Source: Candidatus Woesearchaeota archaeon (GTDB lineage: Archaea > Nanobdellota > Nanobdellia > Woesearchaeales > JAGVYO01). Taken from it: a stretch of DNA of 50,137 bases. A program made the position numbers and the translations under genes. The notes beneath the pieces are model-generated. The model was given only the letters and a program-made list of their open reading frames with translations. It ran no database searches and had not been told where the DNA came from. This document shows positions 22,434 to 32,969 of this stretch, one piece after another. Position 1 is the first letter of the stretch; the number at the start of each line of letters is the position of its first letter. The stretch covers positions 1 to 50,137 of the forward strand of contig JAGVYO010000021.1 of the NCBI GenBank assembly GCA_018303225.1, read 5' to 3'.

Positions 22434-22521
22434 GCGCAGATGGTCTAACGGCTATGACAGCGGCCTTCCATTTTTTCCGAGAAGCAAGCCGCTTATCCGG
22501 GTTCGAATCCCGGTCTGCGCA
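22434..22521 (+). tRNA. tRNA-Gly (anticodon UCC) with a 16-nt canonical intron (22471-22486) between positions 37 and 38.
   Basis: Hand fold: acceptor GCGCAGA/TCTGCGC, D-arm GTCT..TGAC, anticodon stem GCGGC/GCCGC, loop CT-TCC-A[intron]A, T-arm CCGGG-TTCGAAT-CCCGG, discriminator A. The BHB is CUUC:GAAG with bulges CA|U and CA|A. No CCA is encoded. Confidence 0.85.
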
Positions 22522-28540: not shown

Positions 28541-29215
28541 TTAATATTCATCGAGTTTTTTCTGGTTTTTCTTCTGGGCCAGACGTCGATACGGATCCCA
28601 CGTTTTACGGAAGATGGCCGGGTAGTCGAGGTAATTCTTTTCCAAAAAGTCCTTGGTGGCAGGATCCGAGACATAGCCGGAACCAAAATTGATGCCTAAT
28701 TTCTTTTTGAGCTTCTCGATCTCCCTATCGCGGGTCACCTTGGCAATAATGGAAGCCGCGGAAACAATGGGATAATTGGTATCGGCCTTATGCTCTGCAA
28801 GAATCTCCGGCAGGTAATCCAGCTTGGCTGCGAGATAGGCCTGATATTTCCTGATATTATTGCTGGGCGAATCGATGATGACTCTGTCCGGCCTTAATTC
28901 GTTGATGATCAGGGCTGTTGTGTCGGCTTCCAGCCAGTTCAGATTCGATTCCTCGGAATTCAGCGCATCGTCAATCTGTTGAGGGGGCAGAATGACGGTC
29001 TTGTGGCTTTTGGCCACTTTCAGAAGCTTGTCATAAAGGGCTTCCCGCTGCTTCGGACTCAATAGCTTGGAGTCCTTCGGCTTCAAGCTTAGCAATCTGG
29101 CTTCGTCCTTCTGGTCTATACAATAACCTACCATAACCATGGGACCGATGACAGGCCCTTAGGGCGAATCTTAGGATTCTCTACCCGCCTCATCGATCCC
29201 GCAGATCAGCGGCAT
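28541..29215 (-). CDS. rnhB: Ribonuclease HII, interrupted by a 21-nt in-frame element. The predicted mature CDS is the join of 29215..29181 and 29159..28541.
   Basis: The ORF track starts at 29140 (MVMVGYCID...) and lacks the catalytic N-terminus. Upstream in the same frame, ATG 29215 gives MPLICGIDEAGR-ES*DSP*-GPVIGPMVMVGY. AGGTGA lies 4 nt upstream of ATG 29215. Confidence 0.75.
29160..29180 (-). other. Candidate bulge-helix-bulge intron within the rnhB mRNA (21 nt, contains two TAA codons).
   Basis: The RNA reads ..AGGC GGGU [AG|A] GAAUC CUAA GAUUC GCCC [UA|A] GGGCCU... It has a 4-bp central helix GGGU:GCCC flanked by 3-nt bulges and a 5-bp inner hairpin. Cutting after the second bulge nucleotide gives GGU AGA GGG CCU, which encodes G R G P. 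Confidence 0.6.
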
Positions 29216-29313
29216 ACATTCACCTGGTTTTTCCATTGGAAAGGATGTATTTAAGGTATTCGATTTTTCGTGATTCAAAAAATATATAAAGTAGGAAGAA
29301 TACTAAAAGAAAT

Positions 29314-29623: not shown

Positions 29624-30535
29624 CTATCTCATATATTTATCTAACCATCCAAGGGTCTTCTGGAACGCTTCCTGCTCTATTTCTGTGTCGCGGTTGCCTT
29701 CGGCGTCTTCAAAGCGATGGCCAATGGTTTCGTAGCTGTTAAATTCGTAGACCTTGCCGTGTTTTTGCAATTCAGCCGCTAAGGCCTGTGCCTGACGGTA
29801 AGGGAAATGAGTATCCAGTTCCCCATGATGGATCTGCAACGGTACCTGGATGCGGTCTGTGCAATAGATAGGAGAGCGGGCCACCAAAGTCCGGAAAAGC
29901 TCTTTTTCGTCTTCAGGAGCCTTCACCACGGTGAACCATTCCTTTAAAGGACCGTCGCGGTCTGCGGTCTGGAAGGTATCCAGAATGTCAATAGCACCCC
30001 AGAATTCCACGCCTGCGTCAAAATCATCGCTTAACGCCAACGTCTGCAGAGTAATGCCGCCGCCGTGGCTGAATCCGACTGTTCCGATTTTTTCCTGATC
30101 TACGTTGTTCAATTGTTTGGCGCATTCCAGCAGGTTCAGGACATCGGTGGTTTCACCCCTAGCGATTTCTATTTGGCCATCGGAACCGGCTTCGCCGCGG
30201 TAGTTGGAGGCAGCTACGACAAAGCCCTCCTGGGCAAGCCATTTGAGCCAGTTTTGGTCCGTGTCCTCCAATCCTTCTTTTCCGCCGTGGTTGTACATCA
30301 CCAATGGATGCTTCCCATTTATCTTTGGTTCTGCCAGAAAACCGGTGATGGTCAGGTTTTCGCTCTCGTACGTGATTTCTTTCACTACGATGGTCTCGTT
30401 TTCAAAGAAAACCTTCCCGCCTTGAAATGAATCGCATTGGTATTCTCTCTGCTCCAGAAGGCATGGAATCGGTTGCTGAGCACAACCTGCCACCAGAAAA
30501 AGTACTAAGAGAAACCATCCTCTTTTTGCCGACAT
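29624..30535 (-). CDS. Secreted alpha/beta hydrolase lipoprotein (S9 peptidase / dienelactone hydrolase-like).
   Basis: Has a signal sequence with the lipobox LVAGC, the nucleophile elbow GFSHGGG, and a late HHGELD...GHRF. Confidence 0.75.
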   Translation of the reverse strand: MSAKRGWFLLVLFLVAGCAQQPIPCLLEQREYQCDSFQGGKVFFENETIVVKEITYESENLTITGFLAEPKINGKHPLVMYNHGGKEGLEDTDQNWLKWLAQEGFVVAASNYRGEAGSDGQIEIARGETTDVLNLLECAKQLNNVDQEKIGTVGFSHGGGITLQTLALSDDFDAGVEFWGAIDILDTFQTADRDGPLKEWFTVVKAPEDEKELFRTLVARSPIYCTDRIQVPLQIHHGELDTHFPYRQAQALAAELQKHGKVYEFNSYETIGHRFEDAEGNRDTEIEQEAFQKTLGWLDKYMR

Positions 30536-30613
30536 GCCCTATTTCTGAGTCCGGCTTTTTATAAAGATTGTGGAAATCGTAAATAGCCGTGGCCCAAACC
30601 ACGGCCCAAGATA

Positions 30614-30712
30614 TAGCGAGGGGTGGATTTGAATTCGGCAGCGGCTCTTCACCGCTTCCACCGACCTATGGGTTATGGGCCCATCGGGCACTCCTGACTG
30701 CCCCACCTCGCT
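30614..30712 (-). tRNA. Initiator tRNA-Met (CAU) with a 24-nt non-canonical intron (30634-30657) in the T-arm between positions 53 and 54.
   Basis: Hand fold: AGCGAGG-TG-GGGC-AGTCAGGAGT-GCCC-G-ATGGG-CC CAT AA-CCCAT-AGGTC-GGTGG[AAGCGGTGAAGAGCCGCTGCCGAA]TTCAAAT-CCACC-CCTCGCT-A. The A1:U72 pair and the three G:C pairs at the base of the anticodon stem are archaeal initiator marks. The BHB is CGGU:GCCG with bulges GG|A and AA|U and an inner helix AGCGG:CCGCU. Confidence 0.8.
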
Positions 30713-30735
30713 ATGCTTAAAAGGATAAGAAGCTC

Positions 30736-30768
30736 ATTTATAAGTCTTTTGCCGCAAAAGTTTATAAA
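30736..30768. promoter_or_regulatory. Divergent tRNA promoters: CTTATAAATG on the minus strand for tRNA-iMet and TTTATAAA (30761-30768) for tRNA-Ser.
   Basis: Each box is centred about 26-30 nt from the respective tRNA 5' end (30712 and 30794). Confidence 0.5.
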
Positions 30769-30793
30769 CAAATAGGGAAATCTTTTTGCTCAT

Positions 30794-30878
30794 GCCGCGG
30801 TGGCACAATCTGGTACTGCGCGGGATTGCTAATCCCGTTTCCCTCGTGGATTCCCCGGTTCAAATCCGGGCCGCGGCG
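30794..30878 (+). tRNA. tRNA-Ser (anticodon GCU) with a long variable arm and no intron.
   Basis: Acceptor GCCGCGG/CCGCGGC, anticodon stem CGGGA/TCCCG, loop TT-GCT-AA, long variable arm, T-arm CCCGG-TTCAAAT-CCGGG, discriminator G. Confidence 0.85.
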
Positions 30879-30887
30879 TTTTTAAAA

Positions 30888-32969
30888 ATGGTAAAAAAGT
30901 GGTGGATCGTTGTTTTTTTGCTACTTCTCCCTATTGCCATGGCCCAGGAATGGCCTTATACCAGCGAAGAAGTACAGATCCGCATGAACATTTCCTCTGT
31001 GTCTACTGTATTGCCTACCAATCCTGTATCCAGCCTGGAATACCTCATCGTGAACCTGTCTTTCCTTCCGCTGGAGAGGGAAGGGCAGCATATCCTTAAC
31101 CTGCAAACCACTCCCGAAGCGGCTGTGGAAGATGGGTATGGCGTATTCCGATGGGACCGGCCGGAAGCAGAGGAATTGCCCTTCCGTGCAGAAACAGAAG
31201 TGAGTATCCAAAACATTTACCCTCTTGTAACAGAAAAAATCCCTTTCCCCCTCCGGGAAATTCCTGATTCCCTAAAGGCATATACCCTGCCCTCTGCTAC
31301 GATTGATTCTGACAACGAAGAGATCATCCGCCTTGCGTCTCAATTGGCAGAGGGAGAGGATGACCTGTATGAGGTAGTGCATACGCTGGGCGTCTGGGCT
31401 AAAACCAATATCGAGTATGATTTGAGCACATTAACTGCGGACATCTCGCAGAAAGCCTCCTGGGTGCTGCAGACACGGACCGGTGTGTGTGACGAACTGA
31501 CCAATCTCTTTATTGCGCTGAACCGTGCTCTGGGCATCCCGGCCCGATTCGTATCGGGCATATCGTATACCAATTCACCGGAGTTCCCGGAGCAATGGGG
31601 ATCGCACGGCTGGGCCGAAGTATGGTTTCCCGGCTATGGGTGGATTCCGTTTGATGTAACCTATGGTGAATTGGGTTTTGCAGATCCGACGCACATCAAA
31701 ACAAAGGAAGGGGTGGATGGGGACGTTGCTTCTGTATCGTATTCCTGGCTGGGGCGCAATGTGGATATAGGGACAAGAAAACTGGACATCCAGACTTCTC
31801 TTCAGGGATATAGCGGCTACATGGATCCTGTTGCTGAGATTTCTGTGAAGCCTGTAAAGGAAAGCGCCGCGTTCGGCTCGTATAATCTGATCGAGGCAAA
31901 TCTTCGCAATCTGCGTCCCGGCTATACGTCGGTGCCTGTGTTCTTATCGCTCCCGCAGGAGGTTGAAATCATAGGGGAAAGGGAAAAAATCGTACTGCTG
32001 GGGCCGCTCGAACGCAAAACGGTCTACTGGATGGTAAAAGTGAAGGATAGTCTGCAGAGACGTTACCGCTACACCTTCCCGTTCACGGCCAGCACGCTGC
32101 ACAATAGCACGGCAGAGGATGCGTTTTCTTCGGGCCGCGATGATGTCTTCTTCTCCCGGAACGAGATGGAATCGCTGCTGTCCCAGCGGGAAAAGGAGGA
32201 GCAGAAAACCTATTCGAAAGAAGTGGAGATGGACTGTGCCATCGGAAAAGAAGAGTTTTATGTCTACGAGAATACTTCCATCTCCTGCACCCTCCGAAAC
32301 AACGGGAACATCTTTTTAGAGAACCTGCAGGTCTGCCTGGAGAATTGCGAAACCATCACCTTGGGCATCTCCCAATCCCGGTATCTTGAATTCAACATCT
32401 CTGAAAAGAAAGTAGGAAGGCAGGAAGCGCGCATCCTGCTGGAAAACAAGGACATCTCCAAAATCGTGGACATCGGCTTTGCGCGATGGGACGAACCCGC
32501 TATAAACGTCACGGAGTTCAGTTATCCCGGCAAGGTTGATTTTGAGGATGTCTTTGATATCTCGTTTTCATTGGACAAAGCCTCTGTATCTCCCCCAAAA
32601 AATGTGAGGATTGTGCTGGATCAGGGCCCTTTCCGGAAGGTGTGGGAGATTGATGAACTGAACGACCGCCAGTCGTTTGTGCTGGCGCTCAATGCGAATG
32701 ATTTGGGGCATACCCGCAATCTGCTTGCGCTGCGGGCTTCTTTTGAAGACGGCAACGGGAGGGCCTATGATTACGAGAAAACATTCGGGATAGAGGTGAA
32801 GGATCCAACGCTCGGACAGCGAATGCGGATGGGAATCAACCAAGTAGAAGGAGTGTTGCAGAACCTCACTGTCACCGGGATTGTCGTATTGCTGATCGTT
32901 ATTTCTGCGATATTTGTAGCGATCATCCGATTTGTTTTCAAGCCCGCAAGGCCACGAAAAGATATATAA
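30888..32969 (+). CDS. Large membrane-anchored transglutaminase-like protein.
   Basis: Has an N-terminal signal/TM segment (MVKKWWIVVFLLLLPIAMA), the transglutaminase core TGVCDELTNLF (Cys), HGWAEVW (His) and FDVT (Asp), and a C-terminal TM segment VTGIVVLLIVISAIFVAIIRFVF. The ORF-track start at 30786 overlaps tRNA-Ser and was rejected. Confidence 0.8.
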   Translation: MVKKWWIVVFLLLLPIAMAQEWPYTSEEVQIRMNISSVSTVLPTNPVSSLEYLIVNLSFLPLEREGQHILNLQTTPEAAVEDGYGVFRWDRPEAEELPFRAETEVSIQNIYPLVTEKIPFPLREIPDSLKAYTLPSATIDSDNEEIIRLASQLAEGEDDLYEVVHTLGVWAKTNIEYDLSTLTADISQKASWVLQTRTGVCDELTNLFIALNRALGIPARFVSGISYTNSPEFPEQWGSHGWAEVWFPGYGWIPFDVTYGELGFADPTHIKTKEGVDGDVASVSYSWLGRNVDIGTRKLDIQTSLQGYSGYMDPVAEISVKPVKESAAFGSYNLIEANLRNLRPGYTSVPVFLSLPQEVEIIGEREKIVLLGPLERKTVYWMVKVKDSLQRRYRYTFPFTASTLHNSTAEDAFSSGRDDVFFSRNEMESLLSQREKEEQKTYSKEVEMDCAIGKEEFYVYENTSISCTLRNNGNIFLENLQVCLENCETITLGISQSRYLEFNISEKKVGRQEARILLENKDISKIVDIGFARWDEPAINVTEFSYPGKVDFEDVFDISFSLDKASVSPPKNVRIVLDQGPFRKVWEIDELNDRQSFVLALNANDLGHTRNLLALRASFEDGNGRAYDYEKTFGIEVKDPTLGQRMRMGINQVEGVLQNLTVTGIVVLLIVISAIFVAIIRFVFKPARPRKDI

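Follow-up and report, generated by a model that had tools for sequence, protein, structure and literature searches.

The window analysed here is the whole stretch of DNA of 50,137 nucleotides, which is contig C19 of the 41 contigs of a 614-kb genome assembly (49.8% G+C, about 56% complete). The host is treated as a Woesearchaeales-type DPANN archaeon, and 400 sampled relatives of the same order with genomes of 0.6-2.7 Mb were used for comparison (401 genomes with the one under study). On the minus strand, the locus carries a tRNA gene whose T-arm is interrupted by a short insert, which is read here as an intron in an initiator tRNA-Met gene. The features are as follows, with a slash marking the predicted cut within each bulge.

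30736..30743, minus strand: TATA-like box TTATAAAT, 24-31 nt upstream of tRNA position 1
30614..30712, minus strand: initiator tRNA-Met(CAU) gene in its precursor form, 99 nt (A1 at 30712, discriminator A73 at 30614)
30658..30712, minus strand: 5' exon, 55 nt, tRNA positions 1-53, aligning over 1-55 to intron-less orthologs
30678, minus strand: C33 in place of the usual U33, directly 5' of the anticodon
30677-30675, minus strand: anticodon CAU, in a 7-nt loop on a 5-bp stem (AUGGG-CCCAUAA-CCCAU)
30660..30663, minus strand: exon strand of the H helix, C48 G49 G50 U51 (CGGU), which changes with compensation
30657..30659, minus strand: 5' bulge G52 G53 / A (intron base 1), predicted to be cut after the second bulge base
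30634..30657, minus strand: intron AAGCGGUGAAGAGCCGCUGCCGAA, 24 nt, between tRNA positions 53 and 54
30640..30656, minus strand: inner hairpin h', AGCGG (30656-30652), loop UGAAGAG, CCGCU (30644-30640)
30636..30639, minus strand: intron strand of the H helix, GCCG, followed by the bulge AA/U
30635-30633, minus strand: 3' bulge AA/U, containing the predicted 3' splice site
30614..30633, minus strand: 3' exon UUCAAAU CCACC CCUCGCU A, 20 nt, tRNA positions 54-73

Read on the minus strand from 30712 to 30614, the 5' part of the precursor is AGCGAGG UG GGGC AGUCAGGAGU GCCC G AUGGG CCCAUAA CCCAU AGGUC GGUGG, with a D-loop of 10 nt. GGUGG is followed by the insert and then by the 3' exon, and no CCA end is encoded at the gene. 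The TATA-like box is preceded by an A-rich stretch, a candidate BRE. Comparable TTTATAAA-type boxes were found about 25-45 nt upstream of the orthologs, and the box is proposed as the putative promoter of the initiator gene. The initiator gene and a tRNA-Ser(GCU) gene at 30793-30879 on the plus strand are arranged head-to-head, and the 80-nt interval between the two (30713-30792) contains TATA-like boxes for both. The same pairing of the two genes is present in the intron-less relatives L013 and L018 and in L193/L195. This indicates that one orthologous locus has acquired or lost the intron in situ. Another tRNA gene of the window, at 22434-22521 on the plus strand, encodes tRNA-Gly(UCC). It has a 16-nt intron at the canonical position 37/38, whose GAAG pairs with CUUC; the tRNA-Glu(ttc) label given to it by ARAGORN with default settings is wrong.

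The original prediction had named the gene an initiator tRNA-Met, and this identity was reproduced in every hallmark on which it was based, namely A1:U72, the GGG:CCC anticodon stem (G29G30G31:C39C40C41), the CAU anticodon and C33. The predicted coordinates, from A1 to the discriminator A73, were also exact. The CAU anticodon alone does not separate an initiator from an elongator tRNA-Met. The elongator reading is opposed by the A1:U72 pair, by the three G:C pairs at 29-31:39-41 and by G11:C24. It is also opposed by the 5' exon, which is 82-96% identical to a conserved AGCGGGGU.GGGCAG... gene that the relatives carry in one copy per genome. With these features, an elongator tRNA-Met is almost certainly the wrong assignment. 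The initiator function itself, meaning aIF2 binding and P-site entry, is assigned provisionally from the hallmarks. U33 is near-universal in tRNA anticodon loops. The C33 loop CCCAUAA was found in 13 of the 401 genomes of the order (8 genera), and the genome under study is the only one to carry it of the 21 that match the strict 53/54-intron pattern.

The intact precursor gave no tRNA call by ARAGORN, either by default or in intron mode, or by Rfam at the gathering threshold, and the Rfam tRNA model had no match in 30400-30950 even at E<=10. Since the intron lies in the T-arm, this silence is expected and is not evidence against an intron. When the 24-nt insert was removed, the remaining 75 nt formed a cloverleaf that ARAGORN called tRNA-Met(cat). 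The relatives point to the same junction. With the 99-nt precursor as query against 60 relatives, the initiator ortholog was identified in 56 of the 61 related genomes. In most of these orthologs, query positions 1-55 and 80-99 adjoin directly, so that the gene is 75 nt long and lacks exactly the proposed 24 nt. Similarly, three intron-less orthologs were scored at 60.4-62.4 bits by the Rfam tRNA model (RF00005), and two intron-bearing orthologs were undetected. The predicted 24-nt intron at 53/54 is thus missing precisely from the intron-less orthologs, and the predicted exact regeneration of GGUGG-UUCAAAU-CCACC agrees with their junction. A self-splicing intron was rejected, as 24 nt is far too short.

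Within the precursor, C48-U51 would be released from the T-stem to form pairs with GCCG close to the 3' end of the intron. The resulting structure would be a 4-bp helix with two 3-nt bulges (GG/A and AA/U) and an inner 5-bp hairpin. In the mature tRNA, bases 49-51 of the H helix are T-stem bases that pair with 63-65. The two conformers are equal in computed energy, with -35.0 kcal/mol for the T-stem-closed form and -35.1 kcal/mol for the H-helix form. No outer helix h was found, as the candidate pairs are 47:55 U.U, 46:56 G:C, 45:57 G.A and 44:58 A.A. The motif is therefore a relaxed HBh' rather than a strict hBHBh'. The half-BHB described in the original prediction, with CGGU:GCCG, GG/A, AA/U and AGCGG:CCGCU, was recovered in each of its parts and is backed by the orthologs and by the covariation described below.

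A single insert at 53/54 was found by pattern search in 21 of the 401 genomes of the order, distributed over 17 genera. For the motif analysis, the gene under study was combined with 30 others, including examples from named MAGs, to give 31 distinct sequences whose inserts measure 21-34 nt. The contig pattern CATAACCC..AGGTC, followed by a gap and TTCAAAT, also matches bacterial tRNA-fMet with a chance TTCAAAT, and it was used for examples and not for a frequency. One geometry was found throughout the 31 sequences. The four intron bases preceding the last two pair with exon 48-51, perfectly in 28 of 31; the 5' bulge is RG/A in all 31; the 3' bulge is 3 nt long and usually AA/U; and the inner helix has at least 5 bp in every insert. 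In a gapless fixed-length alignment of the 31 sequences (alignment A1), the H and h' helices are paired at 98.9%, compared with 77.6% in column shuffles, and their covariation score is 0.729 versus 0.266. None of 500 shuffles reached either value, and slid registers were paired at 66% or less. In the H helix, two-sided changes are seen in 5 sequences at pair 6:27 of this alignment and in 6 sequences at pair 7:26. The inner helix is 100% paired, and all five of its pairs show changes on both sides. The H helix tracks the T-stem from one sequence to another, as CGGU:GCCG, CGCU:AGCG, CAGU:GCUG, CGAU:GUCG, CGUU:GACG and CAUC:GGUG. The mature T-stem is also 100% paired with covariation in the same 31 sequences, part of which had been preselected for T-stem pairing.

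These data bear on the reading that the insert is retained, so that the mature tRNA would keep a 24-nt T-arm expansion. Splicing is predicted here from the DNA, and in the minimum-free-energy fold the T-stem is closed with the insert hairpin stacked on it, as the retained form would have it. However, the expansion would lie within the T-loop, on which the tRNA elbow depends. The covariation joins exon positions 49-51 with intron positions -6..-3, a pairing that would have no role in a retained insert and that is the defining helix of a BHB. Both bulges are 3 nt long, and the junction is identical to that of the intron-less orthologs. Retention is considered extremely unlikely.

In another reading, the 24-nt insertion has killed this copy, and a functional initiator is encoded in the 44% of the genome that was not assembled. 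This reading draws on the completeness of only 56% and on the failure of the standard tools to recognise the locus. However, 31 distinct genomes keep an insert at this site, always with the same bulge geometry and with helices that covary. The exons are undamaged and give a perfect fold without the insert, and a TATA-like box precedes the gene. No other initiator copy was found in relatives of 94-100% completeness with the 53/54 intron. A disabled gene is considered very unlikely. Similarly, no second initiator-type anticodon arm was found in the assembly under study (56% complete), where no second uninterrupted initiator gene and no better intron-free fold of the locus were found. The predicted status of the gene as the single essential initiator thus holds in near-complete relatives with the same intron, although it is unprovable in an assembly of this completeness. 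Taken together, the segment 30614-30712 on the minus strand is, with high confidence from the comparative evidence, a working initiator tRNA-Met gene with a 24-nt, presumably protein-spliced intron at 53/54.

For processing, EndA encoded on contig C30 would cut after the second base in each bulge, and the RtcB ligase encoded on contig C6 (565 bits) would join the exons to give GGUGG-UUCAAAU-CCACC in a 75-nt cloverleaf. The CCA end would be added after the exons are joined. Splicing creates the T-loop, and the steps that depend on the tRNA elbow would therefore probably follow it. We infer the cleavage, the ligation and this order of processing at the initiator precursor from the genes and the motif.

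The splicing endonuclease is encoded by a single gene of 184 amino acids with PF02778 and PF01974 matches at 106-108 bits (107.9 for PF01974), and the Tyr/His/Lys triad is present. Among solved structures, it is closest to the M. kandleri alpha unit, to N. equitans NEQ205 and to the M. jannaschii alpha4 enzyme. Residues 37-184 are collinear with the M. jannaschii enzyme (PDB 1a79) with a single 1-residue gap, and, in this alignment, the N-terminal domain has no insertion relative to it from residue 37 on. The spacing of nine residues between the catalytic Tyr and His is also that of M. jannaschii. The segment reads Y-DRGVKPGED-H, and the form Y-DRG(V/I)KPGED-H is invariant in nine Woesearchaeales EndAs. 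NEQ205 is six residues longer between the same two residues. The NEQ-specific loop is known as residues 90-98 of that protein and is matched by ARMAN-2 residues 240-247 (PMC3488258); this Lys-rich Tyr-His insertion is absent from the EndA under study, which also has three residues fewer than ARMAN-2 at the ASL of ARMAN-2. Searches of 12 genomes, among them several with 100% completeness, gave no second EndA subunit at E<=1 for Pfam and E<=10 for protein, thresholds that a very divergent beta subunit could escape. In sequence, the Woesearchaeales EndA resembles an alpha4 homotetramer and appears to lack the specificity insertions known so far.

Loop insertions have been tied to the cleavage of relaxed motifs (PMC3488258, PMC5829648), and Kaneta et al. 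reported that alpha4-type EndAs in DPANN accompany disrupted tRNA genes (PMC5829648). The M. jannaschii enzyme, which resembles the one under study in being collinear, in its Tyr-His spacing and in having one gene per genome, is strict for hBHBh' (PMC3239211). In contrast, the Woesearchaeales enzyme would have to serve HBh' sites in tRNA and apparently also in mRNAs. The original prediction held that a non-canonical position of this kind requires a broad-specificity endonuclease. That expectation was reached by reasoning only, and the sole EndA that was found is alpha-type, with neither the insertion shared by NEQ205 and ARMAN-2 nor, apparently, one of the ARMAN-2 ASL type. An alpha4-like, apparently loop-less EndA as the sole candidate for an HBh' site counts against the best explanation. 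A strict-looking alpha4 EndA, apparently without loops, together with a relaxed HBh' site in an essential tRNA, challenges the loop-based rule of specificity.

The ligase gene itself, at C6:398-1756 on the minus strand and outside the window, matches the full-length RtcB profile and is broken by two in-frame inserts of 33 nt (about C6:1690-1658) and 12 nt (about C6:1585-1574), each with a TAA. They lie within the conserved motifs PDGH[..]WGYGF and SPGG[..]GFDINCG, and both fit the BHB cut rule. Without the two inserts, the protein is collinear with the intact RtcB of three relatives. As candidate mRNA introns, the inserts would have to be sealed by the same ligase that the mRNA encodes. In the close relative G015, RtcB lies in a 991-aa open frame (G015:C10:68763-71582) and is split at profile positions 1-52 and 45-426 by what looks like an intein-like insertion of about 490 amino acids. 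Within the window, the RNase HII gene on the minus strand (ATG at 29236) carries the 21-nt insert AGAATCCTAAGATTCGCCCTA at 29160-29180, which contains two TAA codons and splits the motif GIDEAGR/GPVIGP. This insert is built like the tRNA intron, with an H helix GGGU:GCCC, bulges AG/A and UA/A, and a hairpin GAAUC:GAUUC, and the motif is restored once it is taken out. Relaxed HBh' sites are apparently also kept in the RNase HII and RtcB mRNAs.

The neighbourhood of the intron-bearing initiator genes was compared with that of the intron-less ones. A LAGLIDADG ORF was found 0-130 nt past the tRNA 3' end in 19 of the 32 genomes with the 53/54 intron and at none of the 23 loci without it (duplicates removed, equal flank sizes, Fisher p = 1.4e-6, uncorrected for shared ancestry). 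The ORF is on the opposite strand in 16 of the 19, and in one case it is reduced to 70 aa. At four intron-bearing loci (G377, G239, G218 and G042), a second copy of the 3' exon lies 797-865 nt downstream. A weaker fifth stranded 3' end, in G007, was outside the stricter window and was not counted. Between the two copies of the 3' exon is a 240-260-aa ORF with two LAGLIDADG motifs, which matches PF14528 at 42.7-52.5 bits and also PF00961. The stranded T-stem differs from that of the functional gene, with GCUGG:CCAGC and GAAAG:CUUUC in G239 and G042. This difference indicates that the intron, the T-arm and the endonuclease gene arrived together.

LAGLIDADG homologs occur in 184 of the 401 genomes of the order, and 23 of the 24 closest homologs of the ORF flank the initiator tRNA gene. 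All nine genes that are at least 50% identical to the G377 protein stand beside a 53/54 intron. More distant homologs stand beside introns at other sites of the initiator gene, and all 11 extra cases that were parsed are intron-bearing. Seven further genomes have an endonuclease-flanked initiator gene with introns at other sites and none at 53/54. This indicates that the link is to intron-bearing initiator genes generally, and that a close link to 53/54 is confined to the sublineage of at least 50% identity. The introns closest to the one under study, in G351 with 2 differences and G015 with 3, are both linked to an endonuclease gene. In the window and in the assembly under study, no LAGLIDADG homolog was found; the tRNA 3' end is present as a single copy, and no stranded one was found in the assembly. 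The gene under study is thus at most a relic and not a current member of such a cassette.

A route by which such introns would arise can be proposed from these observations. A free-standing LAGLIDADG endonuclease would cut the intron-less initiator tRNA genes of the order, and repair would copy in a cassette made of the mini-intron, a fresh T-arm with its 3' end, and the endonuclease gene. The mini-intron would then split the target site of the endonuclease, and the host EndA and RtcB would maintain the function of the tRNA. Later, the endonuclease gene would decay or be deleted between the duplicated 3' ends, leaving a solo intron as in the genome under study.

An alternative is that the intron is an ancient, vertically inherited tRNA intron without relation to homing endonucleases, whose genes merely land beside tRNAs. 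This would agree with the 13 of the 32 intron-bearing genomes, including the one under study, that have no endonuclease gene nearby, and with how common the homologs are in the order. Other archaeal tRNA introns, those of the Thermoproteales literature, have also spread without any known endonuclease. However, chance landing beside tRNAs does not fit with the 0 of 23 intron-less loci that have the gene, or with the preference of the close homologs for initiator genes and the 11 of 11 intron-bearing extra cases. The stranded 3' ends with a different T-stem argue for joint arrival. The occurrence of the intron is also patchy, even within families. Vertical descent is considered possible but doubtful. 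The relic reading, in which the intron under study is what remained of a mobile cassette after the loss of its endonuclease gene, is the one that we moderately favour from the comparison of loci. Slightly favoured, too, is the reading of the 24 nt as an "immunity scar" that outlasted a homing element acting at the DNA level.

Both the position of the intron and the disruption of initiator genes are already known, and the linkage to a LAGLIDADG gene is what is added here. Position 53/54 was published for the tRNA-Pro of ARMAN-2 (PMC3239211). The non-canonical BHB introns of ARMAN-2 resemble the present case, as both are found in DPANN archaea and both include a short protein-spliced T-arm intron at 53/54 that is missed by standard finders. 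In ARMAN-2, however, two T-loop introns jointly form a strict hBHBh', and the EndA is an epsilon2 three-unit enzyme with ASL and NEQ-type loops, whereas the genome under study has a lone HBh' intron in an initiator tRNA and a single-unit alpha-type EndA without those insertions. The tRNA introns of the Thermoproteales and other TACK archaea also have relaxed HBh'/hBH motifs at many positions, coexisting intron-less orthologs, and a patchy pattern of gain and loss. They are from a different phylum, and their non-canonical introns are cut by (alpha-beta)2 EndA with a Crenarchaea-specific loop (PMC4090602, PMC3241643, PMC5829648), a heterotetramer whose Lys-bearing loop is apparently absent here. 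No homing-endonuclease linkage was described for these introns in the literature examined.

Disrupted initiator genes are known from N. equitans, where the gene is split at 37/38, and from Thermofilum pendens, where it is permuted at 59/60 and has a canonical intron (Chan 2011, PMC3218864). In these cases, as here, EndA and a ligase have to process a BHB motif before the single, essential initiator tRNA is formed. Those genes are trans-spliced or circularly permuted, whereas the present gene has an ordinary cis intron at 53/54. For the endonuclease, the closest comparison is with I-DmoI and its relatives from archaeal rRNA BHB introns, which share with the present relatives the LAGLIDADG family and a BHB-spliced intron within the gene of a stable RNA. 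Of the proteins with a solved structure, I-DmoI is the one closest to the ORFs, and the similarity is weak (E 2.7e-5 to 3e-3). I-DmoI is encoded inside its own intron, whereas the ORF of the relatives is outside a mini-intron of 21-34 nt, beyond the duplicated 3' end and mostly on the opposite strand. In a literature search that was incomplete, no paper linking LAGLIDADG genes with archaeal tRNA mini-introns was found, which is weak evidence of novelty.

At least 5% of the sampled Woesearchaeales genomes have the exact 53/54 form of the intron. ARAGORN and the Rfam tRNA model overlook such initiator genes, and genomes that carry them can seem to be without an initiator. The linkage between intron and endonuclease makes the origin of archaeal tRNA introns directly testable. 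The homing-scar reading, if true, would provide a concrete, testable route for the birth and movement of BHB introns in archaea.

Initiator genes with two to at least four introns were observed in the relatives L010 (G059), L029 (G007), L008 (G001) and L186-L197, at sites in the D-loop, the anticodon stem, about 45/46, 53/54 and about 59/60. An archaeal-type initiator was also found in L139 (JBFYPP010000038.1), which is labelled as a Chitinophagia bacterium MAG. It has a 19-nt insert CCTGCCTGCCGCAGGCAGG at 53/54 without the usual A...GAA ends, and the contig is probably archaeal and mis-binned into the bacterial MAG. Similarly, L088 (the same genome as G015) and L108 are labelled "uncultured Methanosarcinales archaeon" and carry a Woesearchaeales-type initiator gene. 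The public Methanosarcinales label of G015 is probably wrong, and this genome is placed in the same order as the genome under study.
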